The notes under the pieces are model-generated. The model was not told the origin of the DNA and did not search any database. It was given only the letters and a program-made list of their open reading frames with translations. From an uncultured Rhodospirillaceae bacterium (GTDB lineage Bacteria; Pseudomonadota; Alphaproteobacteria; MPNO01; UBA2964), in contig CAZCKO010000001.1 of the NCBI GenBank assembly GCA_964499275.1, positions 14,739-78,738 of the forward strand: a stretch of 64,000 bases of DNA. Reading direction: 5' to 3'. Both the position numbers and the translations under genes were made by a program. Shown piece after piece: positions 36,510-59,190 of the stretch; positions within the stretch are counted from its first letter, which is position 1; each line of letters starts with the position of its first letter.

Positions 36510-36570
36510 CTTTTTCCTCCTGTTTCATAAAATTTGCCATTTCCAGACCCGGTCTCTCGCCAGGCTTAAC

Positions 36571-39520: not shown

Positions 39521-39541
39521 ACGACGTATCTCTCTAATCTG

Positions 39542-40555: not shown

Positions 40556-40557
40556 GA

Positions 40558-41715
40558 TTAAGTCAGCGCCGTATTCTGTTTTTCTGGCTCCCGATCGTTC
40601 CCTAATTCCTCTGGCGGAGCATAAACACCATCACGCAAATAACGCGCAATAACTGCTTCGGTATTCTGGCGAGCTTCAGATTTATGGGCTATGGGATTTT
40701 CTAACCAATGATTAATGCCTGTGGCCTGATGTTTTTTATATTCTTTCGCATAAATCTCGGTCCGACTTTGGGCCAATACATTACCACGTATCTCAGTCCG
40801 TTTCTCACGAAGTGCTTTAAGATCGACAGGACCAATCGCCAAGGCTTCCCCAGGGTTAGGAGATTGACCAACTATTTTACCGTTAAAATCAACAATTTCT
40901 GATCCACCATGCGAACGATGCAGCGGTGCTATTTCACCACTACGACGCTGCTGGAAATTAAGTCCGGGGGAGTCAGCAAATACATCGCCTGAAACTTGTG
41001 CAACATACCCCCCATGATTTGATGAGATCACATACATACAATTTTCAAAAGCACGTGTACGTCTACTCATCTCCCATGAATCACGATGTGGCCCATAGGG
41101 CTCGCCTGTACAATGCAACAGGATTTCTGCTCCATATTGCGCAAATGTCCGCGGCATTTCTGGGAAATTTATGTCATAGCAATTTATCAGTGCGAGCCTA
41201 CCGATCTCTGTATCTACTACCGGAAATACAGCATTCTCACCCCCCTCTTGTTTAACATAAAGATCGTAAAGTCCGGTCGGAGTAGAATAGGTCGCATGTC
41301 CCTGAACATCAGCACCGTTCACCTTACGATAACGAAGTTCCAAGTCGCCGGTGGGGCCGAATAAATAAGCAGAGTTAAACCACCGACCAGGATATGCCGG
41401 ATCATATTCCATCGTCCCACCCGCTACATAAGCCTTATTTTGCTTAGCAAAGTCAGCTAAGGGTTCTAACTCTGGTCCGGGCACCTGGATTGCAATTTCA
41501 CACCATTCCTCAACGGAACGTACATGCTCAACACCGGTTAGGGAAAATTCTGGTAAAACGTAAAGCTTAGCCTGTCCCCACCGGCAACTAACATAATCCA
41601 TCAGCGATAGGTAACGATTAATATTTTCGCGAACTATGGCTTCACGCCACTCTGGCTCCCGCACATGCCGGATGATAGTCTGGACCGCAACAGCTGTATA
41701 TTTTTCGACCATCAA
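40558..41715 (-). CDS. Carbon–nitrogen hydrolase (AmiE/aliphatic-amidase-like), catalytic triad intact
   Basis: LPEFSLTG (Glu), RYRKVN (Lys), LALINCYDINFPE (Cys). A roughly 60-aa C-terminal extension. Confidence 0.75.
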   Translation of the reverse strand: MMVEKYTAVAVQTIIRHVREPEWREAIVRENINRYLSLMDYVSCRWGQAKLYVLPEFSLTGVEHVRSVEEWCEIAIQVPGPELEPLADFAKQNKAYVAGGTMEYDPAYPGRWFNSAYLFGPTGDLELRYRKVNGADVQGHATYSTPTGLYDLYVKQEGGENAVFPVVDTEIGRLALINCYDINFPEMPRTFAQYGAEILLHCTGEPYGPHRDSWEMSRRTRAFENCMYVISSNHGGYVAQVSGDVFADSPGLNFQQRRSGEIAPLHRSHGGSEIVDFNGKIVGQSPNPGEALAIGPVDLKALREKRTEIRGNVLAQSRTEIYAKEYKKHQATGINHWLENPIAHKSEARQNTEAVIARYLRDGVYAPPEELGNDREPEKQNTALT

Positions 41716-41759
41716 TCAAGCCCCCCCTGCTTTCTGGTTAAATCGAATCTTTTTTGTTT

Positions 41760-42917
41760 TTATTCAGCAGCAGCAATACCTTGCTCTTCGCCAAGGTGTC
41801 GTACCGCTGGTATTACTTCATCACGTAATAGTCCTAGTGTTTGGTTTACTTTTTCATCTGGGATATTCCCAATTTTTATACTGAGATTAGTTACGCCGTG
41901 ACCAAACTCTTGATATAGCCGAGTAATCTGTTCAACAGCCATCTCTGGTGTTCCACACATTACTAATCCGCGTTCCATGCGTTCTTCTAATGTCAGCTGT
42001 TTATGTCGTTGTAGCTTTGCTGTCTGGCGCTCTGCATCCTGTTCGTCTTTAAAATACCGAGTTTTTTGTACGACTAATTTTTGTGCGGTCCGAATACCCC
42101 CACCGAGTACATTGAAAAAATAATCATAGCCCCCTTCAAGCGTCTTCATCGCCTCTTTTTTCGTCGGCGCAATTGAACAGTTCATCGCTAAAATTAAATT
42201 TCGGGAAGTTGGTTCCCAACCGTGCTTACGGGAATGCTCCTTGTAGACATCAATAGACCTATGGGCGGATTCGTAATTTTGAATACGCAAGACACCCATA
42301 GTGGCTTTATGTTCTGCGGCGAGTTTGGCAGATGCATCACTACTTGCAGACATTACAATTTCCGGATGAGGCTTTTGCACAGGTTTAGGCCAAATCGAAA
42401 CGGCACGAAATTGATAATGTTCCCCCTCCCAACCAAAGGGCTCGGGCTCGGTCCACGCTTTCTTAATTAATTCGATTGCCTCATTCATTCGCCCATAGGA
42501 TTCGCTCGGGGGCACATTATAAGCAACGTATTCATGAGGTATTCCGCGCATAAAGCCGGCTATTAGCCGGCCTTCCGAGATCATATCCAACATTGCGTAC
42601 TCTTCTGCAACTCTTAGCGGATTGACAATGGGTACAATATTCCCGGATTGGAGGATCATCGCTTTCTCTGTTCGCTCCGCAACACATGCCCCTATTAAAT
42701 TTGGATTTGGCATCAACCCGTAAGGACTCATATGGTGTTCATTATTTCCTATCCAGTCAAAACCACACTCCTCAGCGAAAACCTTATTGTCTATGCCGTT
42801 CCTAAAAATCTTTTGTCCTAATTCGACATCAAATTGTTTGTTGGGAACCGGCCAATCCTGATCCGCAGTTTCGACCCCCGTATACGGCATATGGTGCGTA
42901 TAGGAGAACTTCATCAT
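41760..42917 (-). CDS. LLM-class (bacterial luciferase-like) flavin-dependent monooxygenase
   Basis: 385-aa TIM-barrel LLM family (FDWIGNNEHH...). No flavin reductase in the window. Confidence 0.75.
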   Translation of the reverse strand: MMKFSYTHHMPYTGVETADQDWPVPNKQFDVELGQKIFRNGIDNKVFAEECGFDWIGNNEHHMSPYGLMPNPNLIGACVAERTEKAMILQSGNIVPIVNPLRVAEEYAMLDMISEGRLIAGFMRGIPHEYVAYNVPPSESYGRMNEAIELIKKAWTEPEPFGWEGEHYQFRAVSIWPKPVQKPHPEIVMSASSDASAKLAAEHKATMGVLRIQNYESAHRSIDVYKEHSRKHGWEPTSRNLILAMNCSIAPTKKEAMKTLEGGYDYFFNVLGGGIRTAQKLVVQKTRYFKDEQDAERQTAKLQRHKQLTLEERMERGLVMCGTPEMAVEQITRLYQEFGHGVTNLSIKIGNIPDEKVNQTLGLLRDEVIPAVRHLGEEQGIAAAE

Positions 42918-43057
42918 AGCCTCCGCTTCAGGGTAGCTTTACTACCCGCCTATTAATTCATCATAACAAAATCAACCTGGCGGGACGCACCGCCAAATGC
43001 CCTTTAATTTTGTGCGATTATTTACTTAACGCAATGGCTAATTACGTTATACCTGTT

Positions 43058-43073
43058 ATAGTTATATACTTAT
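43058..43073 (+). promoter_or_regulatory. Quasi-palindromic ATAGTTATATACTTAT (T-N11-A-type) candidate LysR box in the divergent promoter region
   Basis: Imperfect dyad (12/16) within a TTATA-repeat tract 30–45 nt upstream of the LysR ATG. Confidence 0.3.
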
Positions 43074-43102
43074 ATGTTAAAGACAAAGATGATATAAAGA
43101 AA

Positions 43103-44020
43103 ATGTACTCCATAACTTTACGACAGCTAGAAATATTCCGGACCGTCGTTGATGCTGGCTCGTTTAGTGCCGCCGCAGCTGCACTAAAAATTTCACAGCC
43201 CTCAGTTAGTATGCATATTAGGGCACTGGAGACACATTTACGGGAATTGGTTTTTGATCGTCATAAGGGTCAGTCTCCTGTTATTACTGATATCGGTCGC
43301 CGGGTTTATAACCACGCTGAGGAGATCCTTGCACAATCCAAACAAACGCTCTTAGATATTAAATCCCTCAAAACAGTTAAAGACAACGTGTTGTCATTTG
43401 CTGCCCATCGTTTTATTGGGAACCATCTTTTATCCAAACCATTAGCGAATTTTGCAAAACAAAATCCTGGAATCGAAATTATTGCTAATATTGGAGCACT
43501 TGATCAGGCAGTTGAAATGATCCGGAAGCGGGATGTAGACCTTGGTCTTTACCTAGCGAATGGACAAACAAAAGAGGTTATTTCAAAAATTTTAGGGCAT
43601 CAGAAGCTGGCCTTCATTGCTTCCGTCGATCACCCTTTAGCTTCTGGCCAAAACTTGCGTTATCGTGACCTTGCTGAGCACCCCTTCATTGGACCGGTAA
43701 GGGGCACGGATTATGCCAAATTGCTTCAAGGGGTTTTTTATGAGGCGGGTTTTACTAAACACAATACCATAACGCAGTCTCAAAATACTTTGATCCGACG
43801 CGAATTAATTTTATCAGGTGTTGGGTTTTCTTGTATTCTTCAATCTGGCTGGACTGATGATCTCAATATTGGACAATTAGTAGTTCTAGATATGGCTGAA
43901 AATACGCTCTCACTCGAAGTAAGGGTAGGTTCATTATTAGATCGAGAAATTAGCGCCGCATCCCAACAGTTTCTGGAGTATCTAAACCAACTTAGCATCG
44001 AAGGCTATTTCGATGGTTAA
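43103..44020 (+). CDS. LysR-family transcriptional regulator
   Basis: N-terminal HTH (LRQLEIFRTVVDAGSFSAAAAALKISQPSVSMHIRALE) and C-terminal substrate-binding domain. Start at the ATG at 43103. The ORF track starts 93 nt upstream. Confidence 0.85.
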   Translation: MYSITLRQLEIFRTVVDAGSFSAAAAALKISQPSVSMHIRALETHLRELVFDRHKGQSPVITDIGRRVYNHAEEILAQSKQTLLDIKSLKTVKDNVLSFAAHRFIGNHLLSKPLANFAKQNPGIEIIANIGALDQAVEMIRKRDVDLGLYLANGQTKEVISKILGHQKLAFIASVDHPLASGQNLRYRDLAEHPFIGPVRGTDYAKLLQGVFYEAGFTKHNTITQSQNTLIRRELILSGVGFSCILQSGWTDDLNIGQLVVLDMAENTLSLEVRVGSLLDREISAASQQFLEYLNQLSIEGYFDG

Positions 44021-44026
44021 GCATGT

Positions 44027-44806
44027 TCACATACCACAACGTTTTAAGCGAGATGACCAATCTTTTGCATAACTCCAATCTCTTACGTTACGTGCAAAAA
44101 TTTTTTGCTTATTAATTTGTTGAACACAACACAAAGCAAGACACAACATACAAGACAACACTAAAGGACCTGCATCGTTGGCAACATCTGCGATAGGCCT
44201 GAGGGTTGGCATGCCAGTGCCTAACAGTACGATTGCATCATGTTCTGGACCACGAAGGTGTGTTAATGCCTCAGACGCATTTTGAGCTCGCAAACTATAA
44301 ATGGGATGAAAATCACTTTGCTCGTTAAAAGCACTGACCACGTGACCAACCTCAAAACCATGGCTGGACCAGTATTCAGCACTTGCCTCCGTCAATTTCG
44401 GGGGATAGCAGGAAACAAATCCGATTTTCCGCGCCCCAATTGCATTGAGTGCTTCCACTACAGCTAGCCCCGTCGTTATAGCGGGAACGCCAGCACGATT
44501 ACTCCAACGTTCAACTAATTCTGCCTCACGGGCACGACCGACAAGGTATGACGCGCCCGTGCAACCGACTGCAATCGCATCAATAGGGGCATTAGCAAAC
44601 TGCCCGAGAGTGCTTTCCAACCCTTCATAATAATCAATTAATCGGGCTTCTATAGTATCTTCCGAACTAGTTAACCGGGCTGTTATAGTGCTGATGCCCC
44701 GGGGCATCAAAATTTGCATCTCTGGCTCGACTGTTGTGTTGGCTTGTGGCACCAGAACTCCGACCAAACCGCGGGGTGCATATTCCAAAGACAAGCAAAC
44801 CTCCAT
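44027..44806 (-). CDS. Arylmalonate decarboxylase / maleate isomerase / Asp-Glu-hydantoin racemase superfamily protein
   Basis: N-terminal GVLVPQANTTVEPE. First catalytic-site motif AVGCTGAS has Cys. Second pseudo-symmetric motif reads LLGTGMP (Gly, not Cys). Confidence 0.6.
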   Translation of the reverse strand: MEVCLSLEYAPRGLVGVLVPQANTTVEPEMQILMPRGISTITARLTSSEDTIEARLIDYYEGLESTLGQFANAPIDAIAVGCTGASYLVGRAREAELVERWSNRAGVPAITTGLAVVEALNAIGARKIGFVSCYPPKLTEASAEYWSSHGFEVGHVVSAFNEQSDFHPIYSLRAQNASEALTHLRGPEHDAIVLLGTGMPTLRPIADVANDAGPLVLSCMLCLALCCVQQINKQKIFARNVRDWSYAKDWSSRLKRCGM

Positions 44807-44884
44807 CTATGAAGTTATAATCAACTATAAAAGAAAATTACTCAGACTAAATAGCGGTGCAAACTAACTATAAATTAACCTAGA

Positions 44885-46096
44885 TTACAGTAGATCCGGA
44901 AACATATTTGTATCCGTCTCATGAGAATTACCGTCTTTGAACACCCTAGCAGGCACCCAAATTTTTGACGGCTTTATCTCTTCACCCTCCGAATCAGACA
45001 TTTTATGCCTGCTGGAATGCGGTTCCAAAATAGTCATATCTGCAACACTGCCTTTGGCCAAAGTACCTATTTCATTCTCTGAGTTTAGAATAACCGCGGG
45101 CGAGTAGGTTAAACACCTAACGGCCTCATTTAATGGAAGCCCTAACTCTATCAGCCTGTTAAATGCACCAGCGAGGCTATAGTCCAATTTTGAAAAATCA
45201 TGATACGCATTGAAGTCCCCATGCAGATCACTGCTAATCGTATGTGGCGGGTACCCCTTTTCTAACATCATACGAGCTATTCTATACGAAAAATTAATTC
45301 CGTATCCGACATCAAATTTGATTCCGCGGTCATATGCGGCGCTTACACAATCGGGAACGGCATTTGCTCCACCAACCACGCCATCTGGCATATTGCTGTA
45401 AACATGCGCTACGACATCACCAGGTCGCAAATATTGTAGCGTTTTTTCAACTACTGACCTGGGCTCAGGACGCTTCGCATCATCCACCGGGAATAATTCC
45501 CCTGTGTGAACATAAAGGGGTATATCACAGCGCTCTCCGGCCTCTATCGCCTGTTGAAGTACAACCGTATCCCAATGGGAAAGGCCACCAGATTCTCCGT
45601 GGGATTTAATCCCGCAAATCATATCAGGATGACGTTCATACGCATTTACGATTTCTTCAATGCGAGTCATTTGTGGCCCATGCAGGGTAGTCCCCTCCAT
45701 GCCGCCCATTAACGCCCCGGCAAGGTTCGCCGAAACGAAACACCTTACATCGGTAATCGCCTCTTTGCGGATATAGGCCTCAAACCCACCCGCTGTCCAG
45801 GGACCAGAGCTTCCTTGATCAACTACTGTTGTTGCTCCGGAATTAATCCCTGCCTTGTCGGCCGAAATACCAAAATTGGTTACCCATTCATAAACATGGA
45901 CATGCAAGTCTATAAATCCTGGGCAAACAACTTCACCAACAAAATCTATTTGTTCCTTGGATTGTAATGTTGAATCCAATTCCGTACTGAAATACTCAAT
46001 CCTGCCGTTTTTTATACCAATTATCGCCGGTCCAAAATAATCAATAGATGGATCACAAACCGTTTGAGCAGTTATCACCGTATCAAAAATTGTCAT
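44885..46096 (-). CDS. Dihydroorotase-like metal-dependent amidohydrolase (COG3964-type)
   Basis: PGFIDLHVHV metal-binding motif. Start at the ATG at 46096, forming an ATGA overlap with the upstream M20 gene. Confidence 0.65.
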   Translation of the reverse strand: MTIFDTVITAQTVCDPSIDYFGPAIIGIKNGRIEYFSTELDSTLQSKEQIDFVGEVVCPGFIDLHVHVYEWVTNFGISADKAGINSGATTVVDQGSSGPWTAGGFEAYIRKEAITDVRCFVSANLAGALMGGMEGTTLHGPQMTRIEEIVNAYERHPDMICGIKSHGESGGLSHWDTVVLQQAIEAGERCDIPLYVHTGELFPVDDAKRPEPRSVVEKTLQYLRPGDVVAHVYSNMPDGVVGGANAVPDCVSAAYDRGIKFDVGYGINFSYRIARMMLEKGYPPHTISSDLHGDFNAYHDFSKLDYSLAGAFNRLIELGLPLNEAVRCLTYSPAVILNSENEIGTLAKGSVADMTILEPHSSRHKMSDSEGEEIKPSKIWVPARVFKDGNSHETDTNMFPDLL

Positions 46097-47340
46097 AACA
46101 CTTCTTGCATGTTGGCCAACTGGACTAACGTGGTGCACAGCACCTTGGTACCTGCCAAAATGTCACTTTGATTGGTATATTCATTGATGTTGTGACTGAC
46201 CCCATCACATGACGGTACAAAGATCATACCCGAAGGACAAAAATAACTCATTTGACGCGCATCATGACCAGCACCTGAGAAAATACGTCGGCAGGGTAGA
46301 TCAAGATGTTTCGCCTCCTCTTCAATTGCCGAGATAACCTTCTCATTAAATTTAATGGTATCCGCCTCCGCAATACACCAAACATCTGATGAGCATTTCG
46401 ATACAGTTTGGGCCACTAAGTCTCTGACTTTTTTTTCACAATCCAATAGAACTTCGGAATCCGGGTGTCGTAAATCTATAGAAAAAACAACTTCGCTAGC
46501 AACAACTGAAGGCACATTTGGTTCTATTGTTAGCATACCGACTGTAAAACGAATGTCTTCAATAGTTGAAAACACTGTGTACATTTTTTCTATTGTTCTT
46601 GACGCCTCTTCAATCGCATCTTTTCTTAGATCGTAGGGTGTCGTCCCGGCATGGGCTTCATCTCCAATAATCTTCACCCGCATACGCCTGACCCCCTGTA
46701 TTCCGGTAACGGCACCAATGGGGATGCATTCTTTTTCTAGAATGGGACCTTGCTCAATATGTGCCTCTATAAAACAGTACACATCTCTTCCGAATGGAAC
46801 ATTTTTGATGCCCGGTAAATGATCTTGAAGTTTCAGGAGTTCATCCCCGACTGATACCCCTGTTTTATCCTTCACAGCCTTTATCTCTGATATTGGTTTG
46901 ACACCAACATATGCCTCGGATCCCATCATGCCAGGAGCAAACCGGGACCCCTCTTCGTTCATCCAGGCCACTATTTCGATACTTCTTCTGTGTTCTGTCC
47001 TTGAATTGATAATTGCCCGGGCCGCTTCTAGGCCTGCAAGGATACCAAAAGCACCATCAAACTTCCCACCGGTCGGCTGAGTATCAAGGTGCGAACCAGT
47101 CATAACTACCGGCAGATCGGGCTCATTCCCCTCAATGCGAAAAAAAAGGTTACCCACATCGTCGGCAGTTATTTTAAGCCCATATGCTTCTGCCCATGAT
47201 ATACAAAGATCACGTGCCGCAAATTCTTCCGAGGTAAGGGCTTGCCGATTAACCCCCCCGCCTTCAATGCCGCCAATTTCAGCTAGCTCCATCAAATTCG
47301 ACCAGAGCCTTTCAGATTCAATATATTCCGCAAGAGCCAT
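46093..47340 (-). CDS. M20-family Zn-hydrolase of the N-carbamoyl-L-amino-acid hydrolase / allantoate amidohydrolase / beta-ureidopropionase group
   Basis: 415 aa. GSHLDTQPTGGKFDGAFGILAGLEA signature of the AmaB/AllC family. Confidence 0.75.
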   Translation of the reverse strand: MALAEYIESERLWSNLMELAEIGGIEGGGVNRQALTSEEFAARDLCISWAEAYGLKITADDVGNLFFRIEGNEPDLPVVMTGSHLDTQPTGGKFDGAFGILAGLEAARAIINSRTEHRRSIEIVAWMNEEGSRFAPGMMGSEAYVGVKPISEIKAVKDKTGVSVGDELLKLQDHLPGIKNVPFGRDVYCFIEAHIEQGPILEKECIPIGAVTGIQGVRRMRVKIIGDEAHAGTTPYDLRKDAIEEASRTIEKMYTVFSTIEDIRFTVGMLTIEPNVPSVVASEVVFSIDLRHPDSEVLLDCEKKVRDLVAQTVSKCSSDVWCIAEADTIKFNEKVISAIEEEAKHLDLPCRRIFSGAGHDARQMSYFCPSGMIFVPSCDGVSHNINEYTNQSDILAGTKVLCTTLVQLANMQEVL

Positions 47341-47349
47341 GTGCCACTC

Positions 47350-48237
47350 TTAAATTTTTTTCAGTCCAGAAAGCAAAGCCGACTTTCCCAAGTAATCTTT
47401 CTTAGCTGACCAGTTACCCGACTCTGCCATAGCCAAAAACTCAGATAACATTAAATTGGTCAAAGTCGGCTCCTCTAAGTTGACGGTGTGCCCAGTGCGT
47501 GGCATCACACATAACCCTGACATTGGTAAGGTCCGTTTGAGATAAATTGACGGCTCAATGCACCACTCGTCTTCATCACCCACAATGATCAGGGCTGGGG
47601 CATTTACCTTAAGAATATCCTCTTCAAGGTCGTAAAGTGAAGGACGCTTTCGTTGTACACCTAGCATAGTCAGTGCAGCGCCTTGTTTCGAGTGACTGGC
47701 CAACCGGCCTTTGAATGCTTCCCATCCCTTGAAGTCTTTGGTTTTAAATTGTTGTCTAAATGCACCATTCGCATAAAGCTCGGCCATTTCCTCTGAACCA
47801 AGCTCAACGTATTTTTCAGCTAACATTTCTGCATCTTTGGCATATGCTTCCTGCTGGTCCTTGGGAGCGCCATAACCACATGAAATCAATGCTATAGATG
47901 AGGTTTTTTCTGGATACAAGATGGCAAAATGAAGGGCGGCAAAGCCTCCCATCGAACAGCCAATAATATGTGCCGATTTTAGTGAATACCCCTCAAGGAC
48001 TGAATTAATATCCTCAGCGGCAATTTTTTGGGAGTACAGTTCGGGATCCTCCGGTACATCTGATGGTGGATATCCGCGCGCATTGAACGTAATGCATTTG
48101 TATCGCCGCGAGAGAGCGGAAACTTGCATAGACCAGCTTTCAAGGTTATCAGCGAATTCATGAACAAATATGATCGCAGCGCCTTCTCCATACGCTTCCG
48201 TATAAAGCTTGGCACCATTAGCTTCAATTAAAGTCAT
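47350..48237 (-). CDS. Alpha/beta hydrolase
   Basis: GCSMGG nucleophile elbow. 295 aa. Confidence 0.65.
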   Translation of the reverse strand: MTLIEANGAKLYTEAYGEGAAIIFVHEFADNLESWSMQVSALSRRYKCITFNARGYPPSDVPEDPELYSQKIAAEDINSVLEGYSLKSAHIIGCSMGGFAALHFAILYPEKTSSIALISCGYGAPKDQQEAYAKDAEMLAEKYVELGSEEMAELYANGAFRQQFKTKDFKGWEAFKGRLASHSKQGAALTMLGVQRKRPSLYDLEEDILKVNAPALIIVGDEDEWCIEPSIYLKRTLPMSGLCVMPRTGHTVNLEEPTLTNLMLSEFLAMAESGNWSAKKDYLGKSALLSGLKKI

Positions 48238-48239
48238 AT

Positions 48240-49028
48240 TTAAATAGCCTTTACTTGTCCGCCATCTATATCGAAAGAAGCGCCGGTTATATAAGTCGCC
48301 CTATTAGAAGCTAAAAACACAACCAATGCTGCAAGCTCATCTGGCTCGCCATAACGCTTCAAAACTGTTTCCGCGGTCAATATAGCGGTTGCTTCTTTAA
48401 CAGAAATTTGATCCTCTTTCGCTTTTTCCTCTGCAAGATAGATCATTCGATCCGTAGCGAATGGGCCAGGGTTTATCACGTTACACAAAATACCATCTGG
48501 GGCACCTTCTTCTGAAAGTGCCTTACTAATATTTTGAAGAGCAGCGTTAGAAAATCCTGCAGTTATGGCATGAGCATGAGGCTGCCGGCCATGCGTTCCC
48601 GCCATAAAAAGGATACGCCCGCCATTACCTACCGACTGCATTACCCCAAATGCCTCACGTGCCAACCTGATTTGGGCGAATACTTTGGTCTCGGCAGCCT
48701 CGCGCCACATATCGTCTGTCATCTCTAGAAATGGTGCGGTAGCCGCACCGGCTGAATTTGCAATCAAGACGTCAAGTCCATGTTTCCTTGAAACCTCTTC
48801 AATCATGGAGATGGATTGTTCGGCTGATGTCACGTCGCATATGCAGCCTTCAACAACCCCGCAAGTTTCCGCATTCAAATTTTTAACTGCAAAATTGACC
48901 TTTTCCTCATTTCGCCCCGACAGCGTTACCGTTGCACCTTCCAACGCAAACATTCTCGCAATGGAATATCCCAAACCGCTACTAGCTGCACTGACGATGA
49001 CCGACTTTCCTTCAAGCCCCAATTCCAT
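48240..49028 (-). CDS. SDR-family NAD(P)-dependent oxidoreductase
   Basis: N-terminal SAASSGLG dinucleotide-binding motif. 262 aa. Confidence 0.75.
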   Translation of the reverse strand: MELGLEGKSVIVSAASSGLGYSIARMFALEGATVTLSGRNEEKVNFAVKNLNAETCGVVEGCICDVTSAEQSISMIEEVSRKHGLDVLIANSAGAATAPFLEMTDDMWREAAETKVFAQIRLAREAFGVMQSVGNGGRILFMAGTHGRQPHAHAITAGFSNAALQNISKALSEEGAPDGILCNVINPGPFATDRMIYLAEEKAKEDQISVKEATAILTAETVLKRYGEPDELAALVVFLASNRATYITGASFDIDGGQVKAI

Positions 49029-49061
49029 TATTAGCCTCGCTATAAGATATTTTAAATTATT

Positions 49062-50195
49062 TCACGAATGATTACCTTTGCTCGCACATTTTTCAAAGAC
49101 TTTCGGAAACTCTGAACAAAATAAACCAGCCCATTCCTCTGGTACTGTGGTCGAAATTTTAAGAAACAAATTTTTCAAAGTGTCACTATGATAGTCAGAG
49201 GTTCTAATAAAAAATCCCCGGTTGAGTAATTCGTCTGCAATAGAATTTGCAGAAACCCCGCTATCTTGGCAATCAACAGCTAAAAAATTCCCATTAGAAG
49301 GATATACAACGGGGCGTAGCCCCTCTAAGGGCTCTAGCATTCTATTAATCGATTCCTGATTTCGCCTTTGTACCAGGTTAACACCCTCCATCCACTCATC
49401 CTTTACCTCGAATGCCGCCACCGCAGCCAACTGCCCGAGAATATTTGAACCGAGGATATTGGGCTGATCTTCCATTAAATGCGTAAATATTTTCTTATCC
49501 GCTACTACAGCGCCAGTGCGCAGACCAGCGATACCAAGCCATTTACTGAAGCTATATGTCGTGATGGTCCTCTCAGGATAAAGATCTCGGACCAAAAAAT
49601 GATTAAAGGCGAAGTCGCGATAAGTGCAATCGTGTACAATTACAGCTCCGAATTTTCTTGCAGCATCTACGATTTCCGTCAACTCATCCAACCCATAGCA
49701 AGAACCAAGTGGATTAAGTGGGTCAATCAAATAAATAATAGCGTTATCACTAATGGAGAGTTGTTCTTCAAGTTCTCGGGCATCAATCTTATAATCCTTA
49801 CCCTCATCATAAATAGGTAACCGGCAGATATCAGCACCTTCATTCTGACTAAATTTCAGCGGCCATACCCAAGTGGGATCACTTGTAATCAGCGTTGTCG
49901 TCTTATTACTCATTCTCTTGCAAACGAGATACAAACCCTCGACTGCACCATCTGTTATAAGCACCTGTGTCTCCCCGGATGCCTCCGGCCCTATTAAATC
50001 GAGTAATATCTGTTCACGGAGTTTCTCTAAACCTTGCGGCGGCGCATAAAGGTTATAACTCTGGTCGTCGATACCTTTTATAAGCGCCTCTTTTACTAAC
50101 GGGTGGGCAGGCAAATGGTTGGTGTTTTGTCCCATCCAAAGCATGTCTTGGCTTCTATGCAGGGCATCAAAAGTTCGTGTGCTTTGAATTGTCAT
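49062..50195 (-). CDS. PLP-dependent aminotransferase, class I/II
   Basis: SFSKWLGIAGLRTG with the Schiff-base Lys. 377 aa. Confidence 0.75.
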   Translation of the reverse strand: MTIQSTRTFDALHRSQDMLWMGQNTNHLPAHPLVKEALIKGIDDQSYNLYAPPQGLEKLREQILLDLIGPEASGETQVLITDGAVEGLYLVCKRMSNKTTTLITSDPTWVWPLKFSQNEGADICRLPIYDEGKDYKIDARELEEQLSISDNAIIYLIDPLNPLGSCYGLDELTEIVDAARKFGAVIVHDCTYRDFAFNHFLVRDLYPERTITTYSFSKWLGIAGLRTGAVVADKKIFTHLMEDQPNILGSNILGQLAAVAAFEVKDEWMEGVNLVQRRNQESINRMLEPLEGLRPVVYPSNGNFLAVDCQDSGVSANSIADELLNRGFFIRTSDYHSDTLKNLFLKISTTVPEEWAGLFCSEFPKVFEKCASKGNHS

Positions 50196-50215
50196 ATCAG
50201 AAAAATGAGGCCTAC

Positions 50216-51016
50216 CTAAGACGCGTCTTTACCGGAAAATATTCGTAAGACGATAAATTCAACACAAACGAGACCAGTGAACAAAATCAATCCCACTATT
50301 AACAAAAAGGTTATTGCCGACAGTGCCAGTGCTGTCTCCAGACCAGAGGCCGCAAAGCTTATGAGATAACCTATTCCAGATTGGGCCGTTACAAACTCAC
50401 CAACGACTACTCCAATGATTGTGAGCGTCAGTCCAATTCTCAGTCCAGTAAAAATCATCGGAAGAGCAAAAGGCAATCTCACAGAGAAGAATGTTTGCCA
50501 TCTACCCGCTGTAAGTGATTCACAAAGCTTTAAATATGTAACACCAGTATTGAGCAACCCAGTTGATGATGCCACTACAATAGGGAAAAGAGCGAGACAC
50601 ATCCCGTAGGCTAGTCTCGCCTCTGTGCCAACTCCAAACCATAGAATGAATAGAGGGGCCAGTGCGATGGTGGGTATAAGGTTAAATAACACAAGATTAG
50701 GAAAAATCGCCCGACGCGCAATATAGGAGACTGTAATTAAACAGGATAAAGATAAACCCAAAATGGTAGAAAAAATAAAAGCCGCAAAACACTCATAAAG
50801 TGTGCCCAAAGCATGCCCCCACATAAATTTGCGCTGAGCTATGAAGAGGTCAACCACATCACCGGGTGGGGGTAATATGATTGTCGGTACAAATTTTTGA
50901 TCAACAAGGTGCTGCCACAAAAACACAATCACAGCAAAAAATGCGACCGGGAGAATGATCTGCCGGAAATTTGTGAAGATGTTCAGTCGCAACTTGTTTA
51001 AAATTAAATCGAGCAT
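50216..51016 (-). CDS. ABC transporter permease, NitT/TauT (SsuC-like) family
   Basis: 266 aa, six TM, binding-protein-dependent permease EAA region. Confidence 0.75.
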   Translation of the reverse strand: MLDLILNKLRLNIFTNFRQIILPVAFFAVIVFLWQHLVDQKFVPTIILPPPGDVVDLFIAQRKFMWGHALGTLYECFAAFIFSTILGLSLSCLITVSYIARRAIFPNLVLFNLIPTIALAPLFILWFGVGTEARLAYGMCLALFPIVVASSTGLLNTGVTYLKLCESLTAGRWQTFFSVRLPFALPMIFTGLRIGLTLTIIGVVVGEFVTAQSGIGYLISFAASGLETALALSAITFLLIVGLILFTGLVCVEFIVLRIFSGKDAS

Positions 51017-51050
51017 TCTTTCCTAAATTTCATTCCATAAGAGACACTGT

Positions 51051-51836
51051 TTATTGATTGCCAAACCAAACCTGTAAGCGGTAGCTCGCAAAAGCGATCA
51101 AGGAATAGAAAAAGAGACCCACGAAACACAGGAATAAAACCGTGGCTATCATTAAATCCGTTTGTAATTGGCCAAACGCTACCAAAATCAAAAATCCAAG
51201 TCCTTGTGAGGAAGTAATAAACTCACCCACAATTACTCCAATCATTGCCATGGTTATACTCATCTTCATTGCACTTATCAGATAGGGTAATGCAAAAGGA
51301 AATCTAACCAGAAACAAGGTTTGCAATTTTGACGCCGTTAAAGACTCACAAAGCTTTAAAAGACTGGGGTCGGTATTCTTTAGACCAGCGGTCATACTTA
51401 TAATTATCGGGAAAATACTTATAAAAACAGCAAAACCCAGGCGAGACTCAAATTCGATACCGAGCCAAAGAACAAACATGGGAGCCCACGCGATCTTGGG
51501 AACAATCTGAAAACCAACAATATTTGGATAGAGAGCATCCTTGGCCCACGGCGACCAAGTCATCAAAAGCGCTAAAAACAGACCAATAATACTTGCTAGG
51601 AGAAAACCGCCGAGCGCCACCGACGCCGTCGGTAAAATGTTCTTCGTTATAAGATCCCAATTATCAAAAATGGCAACTACAACCGCGCTTGGCCGTGGCA
51701 AAATTGATTTAGGATAATTTGTATACCAGGTAAAAAATTCCCAAATCCCAATCACTGACAAAAACAATAGAACCGGGAGGAAACTATCACGTACTCCGGT
51801 CAAAAACGAATTCTTAGGATTTGGCAAGGCACTCAT
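51051..51836 (-). CDS. ABC transporter permease, NitT/TauT (SsuC-like) family
   Basis: 261 aa, paralogous to the adjacent permease. Confidence 0.75.
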   Translation of the reverse strand: MSALPNPKNSFLTGVRDSFLPVLLFLSVIGIWEFFTWYTNYPKSILPRPSAVVVAIFDNWDLITKNILPTASVALGGFLLASIIGLFLALLMTWSPWAKDALYPNIVGFQIVPKIAWAPMFVLWLGIEFESRLGFAVFISIFPIIISMTAGLKNTDPSLLKLCESLTASKLQTLFLVRFPFALPYLISAMKMSITMAMIGVIVGEFITSSQGLGFLILVAFGQLQTDLMIATVLFLCFVGLFFYSLIAFASYRLQVWFGNQ

Positions 51837-51856
51837 CTACTAATTTTCTTTGATTG

Positions 51857-52669
51857 CTAATGCTGGGCGTCAATTTTCCCACGCAAATGGGCACAAATCT
51901 TGTTAAATTCTGGCGTTTCGACAAGAGAAAAATCTCTCGGGCGCTCAAATGGTACCACCAGATTTTCAATAATAGTTCCAGGGCGAGCACTCATCACCAA
52001 AACGCGATCAGACAGAAAAACTGCTTCTCTTATACTATGCGTTACAAATAGTCCGGTCTTTTTAAAGTCTTGCCATAGATCCATCAGAACCTGATTCATT
52101 TCGTCTCGAGTTATCGCGTCAAGCGCGCTGAATGGTTCGTCCATTAAAAGCAAAGAAGGATCATAGAGTAGGGCTCGACATATTGCGACCCGTTGTTTCA
52201 TTCCACCCGACAATTGTGCAGGTTTTTTGTCCAGAAATTGCTCGAGACCAACACGGCTCAAAAGATCTTCAGCGATTGGTAAATATTTTTTTCGGTCTCT
52301 ATTAAGAATCTTCACCGGAAAAAGAACATTTTCCAAGGATGTCTTCCAAGGCAGCAGGGTAGGGTCCTGGAACATCAATCCGATATCTTCTCGTGGCTTG
52401 ACCATCGGTTGACCACCGATTGTTACATTCCCTTTGGTGGGGTGTTCTAGGCCCGCAATCATCATCAATAGAGTGCTTTTTCCACACCCGCTAGGGCCCA
52501 GTAAAGAGACAAACTCCCCTTCCCCAACACCACAATCTATATGTTCAAGCGCTATCGTTTGATTGGGGCCAGGGTTAAATATTTTTTGAACGCCGTCCGC
52601 GTGCACATAACTATCCGACTGCAAAGCGGGTTCTCTTATAGCAAAAGACTCAGACATATTTAAACTCAA
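51857..52669 (-). CDS. ABC transporter ATP-binding protein, NitT/TauT family
   Basis: GPSGCGKST, LSGGMKQRVAICRAL, LLMDEPFSALD. Confidence 0.85.
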   Translation of the reverse strand: MSLNMSESFAIREPALQSDSYVHADGVQKIFNPGPNQTIALEHIDCGVGEGEFVSLLGPSGCGKSTLLMMIAGLEHPTKGNVTIGGQPMVKPREDIGLMFQDPTLLPWKTSLENVLFPVKILNRDRKKYLPIAEDLLSRVGLEQFLDKKPAQLSGGMKQRVAICRALLYDPSLLLMDEPFSALDAITRDEMNQVLMDLWQDFKKTGLFVTHSIREAVFLSDRVLVMSARPGTIIENLVVPFERPRDFSLVETPEFNKICAHLRGKIDAQH

Positions 52670-52723
52670 CGTAAAGGTTTGCAGAAAAATAGTTTAGTGA
52701 ACACGCGGACAACATCATAGGTT

Positions 52724-53842
52724 TTAACCGAGAGCCTTCGCCCCTGGTGCACCCAACTTCTTGATAAGCGCGAGTTCTTTGTCACTCACCTTGTATTTAT
52801 TAGTAACCATTTCATCCAAGTGCATGATTTTGCTCAAATCAGGAGCAGGGTCACCAGGCTTAGCAAGGTTTTTCACAACGAGGTCAACCATCTTTTGATA
52901 CTTAGCGGGATCAACACTACCCAGACCCGTCGTGGCCATTTCTTTTGTGGTATTGATGTAAGTGTAAAGGTCAATCTCGATGTCAAACTGCTTTCGCTTT
53001 GAAGCCGTAATCCCAGCTTCCGGCACTGCCTTGAAAAAGATCTCTTTAGCCTCGTCATGGTTGGTCATGTAGTACTTGATCCCCTCCATGATGGCTCCTG
53101 TCACATCCGCACACATTGCCTTTTCTTTTGCGTACATTTCAGGCTGGGTAATTATCATGTAGCCATAGAACGGCATATCGAAATCTTTATAAAGGAAAGT
53201 ACCAACGTCATACCCCTTGTTAACAACATCGGGGACAACTGATGAAGCAAAACAGGAAATAAAGTCGACTTTTTTCTGAAGCATAACACCGGTTCTGATT
53301 TTATTATCAACCTGAACGACATTAACTTTAGACCAATCAAACCCAGCATTTTGTCCAAAGATTGGCAAAAATGGATATTCTCCTGATTTAACAACAGAGC
53401 CACATTTTTTACCCTCAAGGTCCTTGGGTGTTTTGATGCCAGAAGATTTTAGAAAAACAATCCCCATCGCTGAGCTGTAGCTAGCGCAAGCTAGATAGGC
53501 TAACTTCATTCCTCTGACGGTCTGCAAAGACGCCGTCGGTGCAGATGAAATTCCGAAATTAAATTTGCCTTGCCCAATCGCTTGCGCAGATGCAGTGGAG
53601 CCGAAGCCGCGGCTTATTTTGACATCTAAACCAAGCTTCTTAAAAAAGCCCTTTCCAGCGGTGGTATAAATCCAGGCACTACCACCATTTGGAATCCACG
53701 ACTGCGTAAAGGTAATACTTCTCATTTTTTTTGCAAACGCCATTGGCGCGATACCACTGGCCAAAATGGATGCCATCCCCACACCGGTACCCCTAACAAA
53801 CTTCCGGCGACTGACACCTTTTAAAATTTTCTTCTTATCCAT
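52724..53842 (-). CDS. NMT1/THI5-like (NitT/TauT family) ABC substrate-binding protein with a twin-arginine signal
   Basis: N-terminal SRRKFVRG TAT motif followed by a hydrophobic stretch ending AFA. Periplasmic binding fold. Confidence 0.7.
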   Translation of the reverse strand: MDKKKILKGVSRRKFVRGTGVGMASILASGIAPMAFAKKMRSITFTQSWIPNGGSAWIYTTAGKGFFKKLGLDVKISRGFGSTASAQAIGQGKFNFGISSAPTASLQTVRGMKLAYLACASYSSAMGIVFLKSSGIKTPKDLEGKKCGSVVKSGEYPFLPIFGQNAGFDWSKVNVVQVDNKIRTGVMLQKKVDFISCFASSVVPDVVNKGYDVGTFLYKDFDMPFYGYMIITQPEMYAKEKAMCADVTGAIMEGIKYYMTNHDEAKEIFFKAVPEAGITASKRKQFDIEIDLYTYINTTKEMATTGLGSVDPAKYQKMVDLVVKNLAKPGDPAPDLSKIMHLDEMVTNKYKVSDKELALIKKLGAPGAKALG

Positions 53843-54216
53843 AAGTCTTATTCCTCCAGTTTATGATTAGTTGTCATATTTTAAATCTCTGAACTCAAAC
53901 AGTCATGACACCTTACATCATTATAGAATGCAAGACGCATGCCAAAGTGGCAATAGCCCCTATGTTTGACACCCGAGGGTCTAACCTAATACCCCCCCCT
54001 CGAATAAAAAAACGGGTTAATTAAACATTTCATTCGGAATCTAACAACCCACGAGATGCCCAAAACATTTTTCAAGGGTCTTCAAAAGATTGTATATATA
54101 TAAAAGTCTGAATTTTTAGCGCTTTGCTTAAAACTTAAATTTTGTAATGTTTTTTGCGATCATCTTCATGAGGAAGAACCTAGCGGTAGTATAACCCACC
54201 ATTGGGCATTAAGAGT

Positions 54217-55676: not shown

Positions 55677-56108
55677 CTAATCTCCTGTCTCTGGGAGTGG
55701 CCCATCTTTTCTAGCACCACCCCAACCTGTATGTGTAATATCGAAAATAGTACCATTGGGATCTAGAAACTTCATTTCATAGAAAACGCTATTGCCTTCC
55801 ATCTCACCCATAAACCACTGACCACCATTCTCTTCTATTTCTCTTTCACATTTTTCTACATCATCCACCCAAAATCCAAAGTGATGTACACCAAACCAAT
55901 CTTTTGTCTTACCCTCACCCATTGGACGGTCATCTTTATAACGCAACAAGGCCACGTTTATTGTACCGTCCGTAAGATAAATACCATCTGCCATTGGCGC
56001 CGACACCGACGTAACTTTTTCCATCCCAAATACAGACATATAAAATTCAGCAGTTTTTTCTGGGTCCTCAACGGATAAGGCCAGATGACGAAGTTTACCA
56101 CTTGCCAT
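55677..56108 (-). CDS. VOC-family (glyoxalase/bleomycin-resistance fold) protein
   Basis: 143-aa single VOC module. Confidence 0.6.
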   Translation of the reverse strand: MASGKLRHLALSVEDPEKTAEFYMSVFGMEKVTSVSAPMADGIYLTDGTINVALLRYKDDRPMGEGKTKDWFGVHHFGFWVDDVEKCEREIEENGGQWFMGEMEGNSVFYEMKFLDPNGTIFDITHTGWGGARKDGPLPETGD

Positions 56109-57238
56109 TAATTCGGTCCCTGTATGTGAAACATTTCAGCGGCATGGTCCCAAAGGACGCGCTGTTTAATTGCAGGATCTACACCCTCAAACATCTTGTT
56201 AATCGGAATTGAAACATCAGGCCAGGTCCCTTGAGGATGTGGGTAGTCGGAACCCCAAATAGCAACATCACCGAGATTACACCAATCGAGCTTCATCAAT
56301 TCACAACCAACATAATCTTCCTCAAAGGTAAATCCACAATTCCGTTTGGCATATTCGCTTGGAAGCATGGAAAGCGGAGCTGAGGGATCAGGAGCACGTT
56401 CCTCGACTTGGCGATCACACCATTCAATAGCAAAAGGCACCCAGCCTATTCTGCACTCCGAAAACAATACCTTTAGATTGGGATTACGTTCAAATGCACC
56501 ACAAAAGACGAGTTGTGAGAATGTATTGCAAAGATTAAAGGGTGCCGTTGCAAGAAAGGCTATTTGTGCACCGCGGTGGTATGGAGGCAACGGGGAGTCT
56601 GCCGCTCCGCCAATATGTATGCAAAGGGGCACACTTGCTTCGCTAGCCATAGACCAAAGTGGTTCCCACACTTCATCATAGACGGGCTTTGCAACATCAA
56701 ATGGCGGAAATTCAACTGCCTTTGCGCCTGCCTTAATCATGCGGCTGAATTCCCTAATGCACTCATCTGGATACTTGGTCGGCAAGGCGGGTAGGATAAA
56801 AATCCTATCAGGTTCAATTTTATTCATCTCCATCGCATAGTCATTAAATGCGCGGTAGACTGAAAATAACAACTCTGGGTCGCTGACATTCCATTTCCGC
56901 ACACTCGCGAAAATTATGCTCGACCACACTTTGGATTGATCCATATGATCCAGGAGTATTTTAGGGTCAGCTGGTGGAAGCGCCCCGTCAGGTAAATCAA
57001 CCCCATGGTCACGAAAGGGTTTTAAAAACTGAGCACTATTTGAACCGTCGGCCGATTTATCCCAAAGTTTACCTTCCCAAGTCCATTGAGAGCCATTTTC
57101 ACCTTCGACAACTCGAGGGCCAATTTCTTTATATTTTTTCGGCAATCGATCCTGCCACAGGTTTTTAGGGCACCAATGCGTATCAAGATGATTATCCGCC
57201 GAAATATAATGGTAATCACTCATCGAAAGCGTCTCCAA
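56108..57238 (-). CDS. Amidohydrolase-2 family protein (ACMSD/LigW-like decarboxylase or hydrolase)
   Basis: N-terminal ISADNHLDTH metal-binding motif. 376 aa. Confidence 0.7.
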   Translation of the reverse strand: METLSMSDYHYISADNHLDTHWCPKNLWQDRLPKKYKEIGPRVVEGENGSQWTWEGKLWDKSADGSNSAQFLKPFRDHGVDLPDGALPPADPKILLDHMDQSKVWSSIIFASVRKWNVSDPELLFSVYRAFNDYAMEMNKIEPDRIFILPALPTKYPDECIREFSRMIKAGAKAVEFPPFDVAKPVYDEVWEPLWSMASEASVPLCIHIGGAADSPLPPYHRGAQIAFLATAPFNLCNTFSQLVFCGAFERNPNLKVLFSECRIGWVPFAIEWCDRQVEERAPDPSAPLSMLPSEYAKRNCGFTFEEDYVGCELMKLDWCNLGDVAIWGSDYPHPQGTWPDVSIPINKMFEGVDPAIKQRVLWDHAAEMFHIQGPN

Positions 57239-57311
57239 GTTATTGCAAGGTTATTTGTTAAAGGTCGCTTAATGGTATTGTTACGTCAAGCTGGGTGACC
57301 CAGATTACATA

Positions 57312-59053: not shown

Positions 59054-59190
59054 GGTTTTGAGACTTTCTGTTAAAATTTTTTATAGGACATACACTAAAG
59101 AGTTTTCATCGAACTATCGACCCCACGGCTTTACCGGAATTGTAAGACATGGAATGCTATCACTAGGAAGAATCAGGAAGAGCTCTGAAC

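Follow-up and report, generated by a model that had tools for sequence, protein, structure and literature searches.

A nine-gene operon of an uncultured Rhodospirillaceae bacterium that joins a NitT/TauT-type importer to hydrolases and may act on nucleobase-derived ureides

A conserved nine-gene operon

We analyzed a stretch of 64,000 nt from an uncultured Rhodospirillaceae bacterium (contig CAZCKO010000001.1, positions 14,739 to 78,738; hereafter the window, in whose coordinates all positions are given). Between 44027 and 53842 its minus strand carries ten consecutive open reading frames (ORFs), which an initial reading of the sequence (hereafter the original prediction) had interpreted as a ten-gene hydantoin- or dihydropyrimidine-utilization operon with its own ATP-binding cassette (ABC) importer. 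The ten ORFs lie in the order that had been described, and profile searches against Pfam and NCBIfam gave their families as follows, listed in the direction of transcription:

53732-53842, minus strand: predicted twin-arginine (TAT) signal peptide of the binding protein, residues 1-37 (S11-R-R-K-F-V16, a hydrophobic stretch, then A-F-A followed by K), read by inspection
52724-53842, minus strand: NMT1/THI5-like periplasmic binding protein (PF09084, 119.4 bits)
51857-52657, minus strand: ABC ATPase, 266 aa from ATG (PF00005; best NCBIfam models ntrCD/SaoA/TauB/SsuB)
51051-51836, minus strand: ABC permease 1 (PF00528, BPD_transp_1; best NCBIfam models SaoP/SsuC/NtrB/TauC)
50216-51016, minus strand: ABC permease 2 (PF00528, BPD_transp_1; best NCBIfam models TauC/SaoP/SsuC)
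49062-50195, minus strand: class I/II pyridoxal-phosphate (PLP) aminotransferase of the PRK06225 family, module B gene 1 (NF004870, 398 bits, cutoff 351)
48240-49028, minus strand: short-chain dehydrogenase/reductase (SDR), module B gene 2 (PF13561, 138 bits)
47350-48237, minus strand: alpha/beta-fold hydrolase, module B gene 3 (PF00561, 76.8 bits)
46093-47340, minus strand: M20 hydantoinase/carbamoylase-family amidase, module B gene 4 (TIGR01879, 396.6 bits, cutoff 204)
44885-46096, minus strand: binuclear-metal amidohydrolase of the COG3964/PRK09237 lineage, 403 aa, last gene of the operon (NF006689, 287.5 bits, cutoff 371)
44027-44806, minus strand: Amdase/maleate-isomerase-like protein, outside the operon and first gene of a neighboring cassette (PF17645, 52.4 bits)

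The broad families that had been proposed for the importer, the aminotransferase, the SDR, the alpha/beta hydrolase and the M20 enzyme were thus all recovered at the profile level. Intergenic distances within genes 1-9 range from -4 to 66 nt, and the gap before the tenth gene (78 nt) is the largest of the set. Scans for promoter and terminator consensus sequences gave counts no higher than in shuffled sequence, and operon boundaries could not be drawn from them. Because relatives share exactly the stretch 44885-53842, the operon consists of nine genes and not ten; none of the relatives that carry these nine has the tenth.

Among named relatives, those nearest to the window are Rhodospirillaceae and Alphaproteobacteria metagenome-assembled genomes (MAGs), and identical copies of the region are present in marine metagenomes. 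A relative with 74-95% protein identity (L008/L009/L011) is collinear with window positions 24567-56140 except for one block, and across the nine genes L008/L011 are collinear at 77% nt identity over 8869 nt. Two more distant loci, L012 and L013, are collinear over the nine genes at 71% and 67% nt identity, respectively, and match the window only across 44895-53854, which is precisely the nine genes. The same nine genes recur in the metagenome loci L105, L107, L110 and L111. With collinearity at 67-77% nt identity in three other species-level genomes, conservation of the nine-gene order exceeds chance. In L012 (MAG A_MB73) the ATPase and M20 genes are each split into two ORFs (3606-5044 and 8750-10004), probably by assembly frameshifts rather than as pseudogenes.

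The tenth gene belongs to a neighboring cassette

The block by which L008/L009/L011 differs from the window is positions 34509-45026, which this relative exchanges for ~255 bp. Besides the tenth, racemase-like gene, the missing block encodes a LysR regulator, a luciferase-like monooxygenase (LLM), two proteins of the nitrilase superfamily, an ABC importer and an alpha/beta hydrolase. L008, L011, L012 and L013 all lack the tenth gene. Its homologs, at 51-73% identity, head the same cassette (LysR, LLM, two CN_hydrolases, ATPase, fused permease, binding protein and alpha/beta hydrolase) in L096, L098 and L099, where the cassettes sit in otherwise unrelated surroundings that include transposases, and in L095 a distance of ~230 kb separates the cassette from that genome's amidohydrolase. 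Since the tenth gene is absent where the other nine occur elsewhere and is conserved with the adjacent cassette, it lies outside the operon, and its adjacency to the amidohydrolase and M20 genes is a juxtaposition.

The tenth protein had been described as an Asp/Glu/hydantoin racemase. It is a member of that superfamily, but it falls under the cutoff of the racemase model itself (PF01177, Asp_Glu_race; 29.3 bits, cutoff 31) and instead matches the Amdase model and maleate isomerases of solved structure (E=1.6e-9). Of the two catalytic Cys of maleate isomerase, the first is kept as Cys82 (in 119 of 121 homologs), and the position of the second is occupied by an invariant LGTGMPTL without a Cys in 121 of 121 homologs at ≥51% identity. 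Because this second catalytic Cys is absent, a two-base racemase or isomerase mechanism is unlikely for the subfamily. Arylmalonate decarboxylase, which keeps only the second Cys, is its mirror image. The original prediction had rested on a trio of amidohydrolase, decarbamoylase and racemase; the racemase-like member is conserved with another cassette, so the logic of the trio fails. For genome scanning, the lesson is that a textbook-looking enzyme trio can arise from two cassettes that happen to sit side by side.

The cassette itself, at 34589-44806 of the window, is separate, conserved and apparently mobile, and is intact in L096, L098, L099 and L095. Its LysR gene is divergent, its two CN_hydrolase proteins are adjacent paralogs and its ABC importer has a fused double permease.

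An M20 amidase and a COG3964-type amidohydrolase

The stop codon of the M20 gene and the start codon of the amidohydrolase gene overlap as ATGA at 46093-46096, as had been noted. Gene callers use this start for the 403-aa amidohydrolase in five independent metagenome assemblies, and an overlap of the same type is called in L008 and L013. These features support translational coupling of the two genes.

The M20 protein matches TIGR01879 over its full length, and by this profile it is a true hydantoinase/carbamoylase-family amidase, in agreement with its earlier description as an N-carbamoyl-amino-acid-hydrolase-type enzyme. It scores just under the cutoffs of two 'allantoate amidohydrolase' subfamily models (NF006769, 409 vs 452; NF006771, 396.7 vs 399) and far under that of the AllC equivalog TIGR03176 (267.7 bits, cutoff 597.75). 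Against NF006775 it reaches 291.6 bits, and the AllC encoded at L013 reaches 519.5 (cutoff 479). Its solved relatives include AllC, and its scores against solved L-carbamoylases (242-256 bits), the N-carbamoyl-beta-alanine amidohydrolase 8c46 (250 bits) and yeast beta-alanine synthase (206 bits) do not separate beta- from L-carbamoylases. An ArgE/DapE-type peptidase was ruled out (TIGR01910, 30.5 bits, cutoff 217.6).

The amidohydrolase had been called a dihydroorotase-like cyclic amidohydrolase, a description that did not hold up. Against dihydroorotase, hydantoinase, allantoinase and dihydropyrimidinase models it reaches 30-50 bits, over the N-terminal composite domain only: 30.5 bits for the D-hydantoinase model TIGR02033 (cutoff 393) and 31.2 bits for the dihydropyrimidinase model NF009941 (cutoff 647), both over residues ~17-109, and 33 and 32.5 bits for the allantoinase models TIGR03178 (cutoff 358) and NF004839 (cutoff 631). 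An ordinary dihydroorotase was excluded on the same grounds (PyrC models, 35-50 bits over the N-terminal part only), and Pfam searches found no Hydantoinase_A or Hydantoinase_B domain (HyuA/HyuB) in any operon protein. The best model is NF006689/PRK09237, 'amidohydrolase/deacetylase family metallohydrolase', and these scores place the protein in the COG3964/PRK09237 lineage and not in the dihydroorotase, hydantoinase, allantoinase or dihydropyrimidinase families.

Its nearest structures are 8wzy, 2ogj, 8je0 and 2ics. The metal ligands of the pattern HxH, K, H, H, D (H65, H67, K164, H197, H231 and D290 in A1) are invariant in 14 clade members, and their motifs align with those of 8wzy, 2ogj and 8je0; from these residues the enzyme is predicted to be a competent binuclear-metal hydrolase. 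It is ~33% identical to the family members named by PGAP, and its own clade holds at least 1394 protein clusters with distinct gene neighborhoods. The title of a 2013 paper by Ornelas et al. reportedly calls a member of the COG3964 lineage 'an incorrectly annotated dihydroorotase'. A literature search on the COG3964 family and on PDB entries 8je0 and 8wzy returned nothing specific.

The importer and the other cassette enzymes

The binding protein begins with MDKKKILKGVSRRKFVRGTG..., followed by a hydrophobic stretch that runs to AFA, and its ATG is preceded at 8 nt by GGAGG. The L013 ortholog keeps the twin-arginine motif as SRRQFV, and we read the N-terminus as a predicted TAT export signal. 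Among solved structures, the binding protein is nearest to ThiY, which binds formylaminopyrimidine (3ix1, E=1e-15), and to 4nmy; these nearest solved relatives are pyrimidine binders. For the ATPase, the mechanical ORF runs to a TTG at 52669, and gene callers take the 266-aa start. The best NCBIfam matches of the permeases and the ATPase fall in the taurine/sulfonate/nitrate group, all under the equivalog cutoffs. Together these matches support a NitT/TauT-family importer with a predicted TAT-exported binding protein, co-operonic with the M20 and amidohydrolase genes; this part of the original prediction was borne out.

The remaining enzymes are less readily placed. The aminotransferase belongs to a large group (2547 protein clusters match at E≤1e-40), the SDR reaches the cutoff of no NCBIfam model, and the alpha/beta hydrolase has weak matches to MenH, PcaD and RutD, all far under cutoff, with the RutD-like match confined to the N-terminal part (E=4e-16). 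A hydrolase gene also follows the amidohydrolase in Alloalcanivorax and Hydrogenophaga; orthology of the operon hydrolase with it was rejected at 19% identity.

The operon joins two separable modules

We searched the window proteins with tblastn against 80 species-representative loci that carry amidohydrolase relatives and, starting from the aminotransferase, collected 49 metagenome loci of at least 8 kb. Neighbor counts were taken only from marker-based tblastn tables, as de novo clustering in high-GC loci was polluted by spurious long ORFs. The operon proved to be a lineage-specific fusion of two separable modules. Module A consists of the NMT1-type binding protein, the ATPase, the two permeases and the COG3964-type amidohydrolase, and module B of the aminotransferase, SDR, alpha/beta hydrolase and M20 amidase.

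Among the 80 loci, the amidohydrolase relatives are mostly paired with NMT1-type ABC genes. The two lie directly side by side, without module B, in L014, L018, L034, L056, L061-L065, L067 and L069, and in the cultured species Alloalcanivorax marinus and Hydrogenophaga laconesensis an NMT1 binding protein and the amidohydrolase are accompanied by an unrelated alpha/beta hydrolase and an IclR regulator. Conversely, the amidohydrolase is lacking beside module B in L091-L094, L101, L102 and ~38 of 43 metagenome loci, and module B is also carried on plasmids of Rhizobium, Methylobacterium, Tistrella and Neorhizobium. A metagenome search based on the aminotransferase returned more than 559 stretches, and the composition of the module is nearly constant: SDR, hydrolase and M20 genes flank the aminotransferase in 43-44 of the 49 loci (SDR in 44, hydrolase in 44). 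Its companions vary, with a GntR regulator in 24 of 49, NMT1-type ABC genes in ~15 and a TctC-type transporter in 11; elsewhere it is found with transporters of the Tct, BMP and SBP_bac_11 types.

In other genomes the amidohydrolase is mostly found apart from the M20 cassette, so their pairing is not obligatory. In L007, L016, L029, L037 and L039, module B lies near the amidohydrolase in other arrangements. That the fusion is stable down to 67% nt identity and that the modules are neighbors in these five further genomes argues for their functional cooperation.

Two further arrangements of the amidohydrolase clade were seen. In 11 heterocystous cyanobacteria (Nostocales; L071, L073, L074, L077-L081 and L086-L088), a same-strand ORF of 455 aa, by eye like class V aminotransferases or cysteine desulfurases, lies 47-550 bp upstream of the clade gene, an arrangement unlike every proteobacterial context. 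In the window, a VOC/glyoxalase-fold protein of 143 aa is encoded at 55677-56108, ~2 kb upstream of the operon; its homologs, at 42-45% identity, lie immediately upstream of a COG3964-clade amidohydrolase in ~15 Defluviicoccus-like genomes (L010, L019, L021-L025, L028-L030 and L035-L039), which hints at a functional link with the amidohydrolase.

Genomic contexts that bear on the substrate

In L013, L100, L110 and L111, the orthologous operon lies inside a urate/allantoin/oxalurate island. On one side of the operon (L013/L100) are AllH, AllF (FdrA model, 483 bits, cutoff 433), AllG and, immediately upstream of the binding-protein gene, a member of the GGT family. On the other side are a xanthine dehydrogenase (XDH)-family molybdoenzyme, a canonical PRK09237 amidohydrolase, a second AllG, a xanthine phosphoribosyltransferase (XPRT), a Urate_ox_N protein, the allantoinase PuuE (509 bits, cutoff 425), an OHCU decarboxylase and the allantoate amidohydrolase whose score is given above. 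AllFGH is an oxamic transcarbamylase that consumes oxalurate (PMC11326118; see also PMC12625717).

Other contexts involve nucleosides, deaminases and hydroxylases. Module B of Rhizobium sp. CB3060 shares an operon with deoC and a PNP/UDP-family nucleoside phosphorylase, and on its flanks are a BMP nucleoside ABC importer, phosphopentomutase and thymidine phosphorylase (deoA). The Neorhizobium module has a nucleoside hydrolase and a bicupin nearby. Enzymes of cog0402 (8-oxoguanine deaminase-, SsnA- and TRZ/ATZ-like) flank module B in 9-10 of the 49 loci and also flank the amidohydrolase, one lies directly upstream of the binding-protein gene in L012, and XDH-like enzymes flank module B in 7 of 49. 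In 13 loci the amidohydrolase has a pcbC-like 2-oxoglutarate dioxygenase next to it, and UbiD decarboxylases are likewise recurrent. A xanthine/urate riboswitch regulon has been described that contains NMT1/tauA-type transporters, pcbC-like dioxygenases, amidohydrolases and nucleoside transporters (PMC7373994). Taken together, these contexts suggest a substrate among the nitrogen compounds derived from nucleobases. The most specific of them is the purine-ureide island, though only one set of related lineages provides it.

The canonical PRK09237/COG3964 amidohydrolase of the island (L013 13642-14904; L100 15743-17005; 381 bits, cutoff 371) lies between the XDH-family molybdoenzyme and an AllG-like gene, and is a second, independent tie of this orphan family to purine catabolism. 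In a Burkholderiales MAG (L041), Rfam identifies a 5' ureB sRNA at 4127-4410 (116.5 bits), which indicates urease genes ~6 kb from the amidohydrolase.

A proposed pathway and its alternatives

We propose a general scheme, judged by us to have about an even chance of being correct, in which the nine genes of this marine, Rhodospirillales-like alphaproteobacterium import and dismantle a nucleobase-derived ureide or amide. The analysis shows the gene content, the families, the translational coupling, the conservation of the nine-gene unit and its modularity; from these we infer the substrate class, the order of the reactions and each individual reaction. The compound would be captured in the periplasm by the predicted TAT-exported binding protein and imported through the ABC system. 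The amidohydrolase would then cut an amide bond, either opening a ring or removing one ureido or acyl group, and the coupled M20 enzyme would strip the N-carbamoyl (ureido) group as CO2 and NH3 to leave a primary amine. The PLP enzyme would transaminate this amine to a carbonyl, and the SDR would reduce or oxidize the product. The alpha/beta hydrolase would cleave an ester, lactone or amide intermediate, at some point in this order. Full mineralization of a cyclic ureide or amide, as originally suggested, is still the most economical reading, and the contexts of relatives fit it; the part of the case that was built on the trio is lost.

Within this scheme we would, with low confidence, give purine and pyrimidine versions roughly equal weight, with a purine-derived ureide slightly ahead. 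In a more far-reaching version, which we put forward tentatively and consider distinctly less probable than the general scheme, the operon would encode an undescribed aerobic hydrolytic and transaminative route for a purine-derived (di)ureide or another ring-cleavage product of an N-heterocycle. Such a route may, for example, supply oxalurate to AllFGH or form an aerobic counterpart of the diureidopropionate branch, and it would differ from ALL/HPX, Pyd, Rut and xanthinase pathways and from reductive uricolysis. An attractive idea is that the aminotransferase and SDR would provide AllFGH with oxalurate from ureidoglycine- or ureidoglycolate-type intermediates. The L013 island has its own canonical allantoinase and allantoate amidohydrolase; therefore the operon amidohydrolase and M20 enzyme cannot simply be those enzymes, and their target is probably another compound or step, related to the canonical one.

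Several observations weigh against the general scheme, among them the presence of these canonical enzymes in the island. The purine island is confined to one related set of lineages (L013/L100/L110/L111, and L112 with XPRT only), and no purine island or purine genes occur in the window, in L008 or in the 10 kb past the right end of the window. M20 and the other module B genes lie within 10 kb of the amidohydrolase in only ~9 of ~75 species-level loci. Rfam searches, at gathering thresholds and at E≤1, found no NMT1-motif (xanthine), thiamine pyrophosphate (TPP) or other riboswitch upstream of the operon or in 16 related loci, and there is no regulator gene within the nine-gene unit here, in contrast to the GntR gene at about half of the module B loci. 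As for the enzymes, the amidohydrolase scores under its family cutoff, which makes it a member of a sister clade, whereas its L013 paralog passes. To our knowledge, the only COG3964 member to have been studied is a deacetylase/esterase in vitro and not a ureide hydrolase. The aminotransferase has no close solved structure (best 1v2d, E=9e-17) and no better named relative, and no operon enzyme has a characterized ortholog.

The pyrimidine version, a reductive-pyrimidine tail, is the alternative that survives best, although we consider it unlikely. A dihydropyrimidine would be imported, or uracil or thymine would be reduced by an enzyme encoded elsewhere; the amidohydrolase would open the ring, the M20 enzyme would act as beta-ureidopropionase, the aminotransferase would make a semialdehyde from beta-alanine or beta-aminoisobutyrate, and the SDR would convert it to a 3-hydroxy acid. 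This gives four of the five enzymes a textbook role: the Pyd pathway consists of PydB/PydC plus a PydD/PydE extension. PydD and PydE are mentioned in PMC7332683. The similarity of the M20 enzyme to 8c46 and to yeast beta-alanine synthase, the pyrimidine-binding relatives of the binding protein, the Rhizobium module B with its thymidine phosphorylase, deoC and nucleoside phosphorylase, and the weak RutD-like match of the hydrolase all fit. However, the scanned operon and neighbors contain no dihydropyrimidine dehydrogenase or dihydropyrimidinase domain (a gene elsewhere in the genome is possible), and the amidohydrolase is not a dihydropyrimidinase. The known beta-alanine aminotransferases belong to another PLP class, which also counts against this version. 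The only strongly informative island context is that of purines, and beyond deoA no pyrimidine-specific context was seen.

A reading in which there is no single pathway, the co-transcribed modules acting on different substrates and the ATGA coupling being an accident of recent fusion, would explain why separate modules far outnumber joined ones and why module B uses other transporters elsewhere. We regard it as improbable, as the fusion is kept to 67% nt identity, the overlap is also found in L008 and L013, and the amidohydrolase and module B are neighbors in the five genomes named above.

More doubtful still is a role in deacylation and salvage. Here, the amidohydrolase and M20 enzyme would be N-deacylases (deformylase or deacetylase) acting on an N-acylated aminomethyl heterocycle such as formylaminopyrimidine, and the aminotransferase and SDR would turn the aminomethyl group via an aldehyde into a hydroxymethyl group, bypassing TenA. 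ThiY is the best solved relative of the binding protein, the NCBI name of the amidohydrolase lineage includes 'deacetylase', and a TenA-like gene (113 bits, cutoff 130) adjoins module B in L102. But no TPP riboswitch precedes the operon, though the genome uses one 23 kb away (20887-20978), the M20 enzyme is of the carbamoylase subfamily and not the ArgE/DapE deformylase type, nine genes that include a high-capacity ABC importer would be lavish for vitamin salvage, and the purine-island and nucleoside contexts do not fit.

The ten-gene operon of the original prediction, in which a hydantoinase-like opener, an N-carbamoylase and a racemase would process a 5-substituted hydantoin or a dihydropyrimidine, could draw on ten genes on one strand with 78 nt and no recognizable terminator between genes 9 and 10 (so that read-through is possible), on a true carbamoylase-family M20 enzyme and on a tenth protein of the racemase superfamily, but it is largely refuted by synteny and the missing catalytic Cys, the amidohydrolase also scores very poorly against hydantoinase and dihydropyrimidinase models, and we consider it very improbable.

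Comparison with known systems

No described pathway with this gene set was found in the literature searched. The operon is built from familiar superfamilies on the known logic of ureide breakdown, and nothing in it is categorically new; it is a variant in which, judged by profile scores, no catalytic component appears to be orthologous to a characterized enzyme.

Hydantoin-utilization (hyu) systems share with the operon an M20 carbamoylase-family amidase coupled to a metal-dependent amidohydrolase, a dedicated importer and the logic of amide hydrolysis followed by decarbamoylation. However, the operon amidohydrolase is not a hydantoinase or dihydropyrimidinase, there is no racemase, the hyu permease is of the NCS1 family whereas the operon has an ABC NitT/TauT importer, and the operon adds an aminotransferase, an SDR and an alpha/beta hydrolase.

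With the allantoin (ALL/HPX) pathway there is a one-to-one correspondence in enzyme type (a ring amidohydrolase, an M20 ureide amidohydrolase, a PLP aminotransferase and a dehydrogenase), and the L013/L100 operon is surrounded by PuuE, OHCU decarboxylase, AllC, AllF/G/H, XPRT and urate oxidase. Yet none of the five operon enzymes appears to be orthologous to its allantoin counterpart (AllB, 33 vs 358 bits; AllC TIGR03176, 268 vs 598), and no allantoinase of the PuuE (polysaccharide-deacetylase) type was found among the window genes scanned. Ureidoglycine aminotransferases are class V enzymes and ureidoglycolate dehydrogenase is an Ldh_2 protein, unlike the operon enzymes.

The reductive uricolytic pathway of gut bacteria uses XdhD, YgfK, SsnA, HyuA, YgeW/UacY, YgeY as well as YgeX; an amidohydrolase opens a hydantoin ring, the M20 enzyme YgeY and the Amidohydro_3 enzyme UacY (C. 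difficile) remove two ureido groups, and a PLP enzyme finishes (PMC12507026, PMC12990295). The order of chemistry is the same, and relatives of the operon are flanked by SsnA-like cog0402 and XDH-family enzymes. There is no orthology, however: the operon M20 enzyme is of the TIGR01879 and not the YgeY type, its PLP enzyme is a class I/II aminotransferase and not a diaminopropionate ammonia-lyase, YgfK and a carbamoyltransferase are lacking, and the carriers are aerobic marine and soil Alphaproteobacteria.

The Pyd pathway with its beta-alanine extension likewise combines a ring opener, an M20-type beta-ureidopropionase, an aminotransferase and an SDR-type semialdehyde reductase. The operon differs in having no dihydropyrimidine dehydrogenase, an amidohydrolase that is not PydB, an aminotransferase of another family and an extra alpha/beta hydrolase.

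Two comparisons concern single components. The amidohydrolase shares its fold and binuclear-metal ligand set with the COG3964/PRK09237 proteins Atu3266 (2ogj), EF0837 (2ics) and BmulJ_04915, but forms its own clade, at ~33% identity and under the family cutoff. The importer shares an NMT1/THI5-fold binding protein and a NitT/TauT-type permease and ATPase with ThiXYZ/ThiY, the formylaminopyrimidine (FAMP) importer. In that case the similarity is only E=1e-15, and the operon lacks a TPP riboswitch, has a TAT signal and places the importer beside catabolic rather than salvage enzymes.

Cross-feeding on nucleobases is now regarded as an important flux of nitrogen in both ocean and soil. Several new routes of purine and pyrimidine degradation have been resolved only since 2023 (PMC12507026, PMC12990295, PMC11326118). 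The operon offers a testable lead for nucleobase and ureide catabolism, drawn from genomic context. Module B is widespread, nearly invariant in composition and has no part with a characterized member, so that naming its substrate would annotate thousands of entries now called 'aminotransferase', 'SDR', 'hydrolase' or 'Zn-dependent hydrolase'. Naming it might also fill a gap between ureidoglycine-type intermediates and oxalurate.

Other features of the window

Upstream of a separate ABC operon (ORFs 16143-20817), the window carries the TPP riboswitch mentioned above (RF00059, 20887-20978, minus strand, 55.3 bits, gathering threshold 54.3). The first ORF of that operon is a BPD_transp_2 permease of the branched-chain/BMP type, which is unusual for thiamine-related control. 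A cobalamin riboswitch (1197-1405, plus strand, 110.5 bits) precedes a TonB-dependent receptor (1597-3687) and a TonB-like gene (3701-4582). Positions 56108-63550 hold a further catabolic cluster with three Amidohydro_2 proteins (decarboxylase/hydratase-type), two EamA transporters, an FAA-family hydrolase and a dimer-type M20 hydrolase. Beyond the end of the window (L103) lie a dihydroorotase-like amidohydrolase, an SDR and a Rieske oxygenase.

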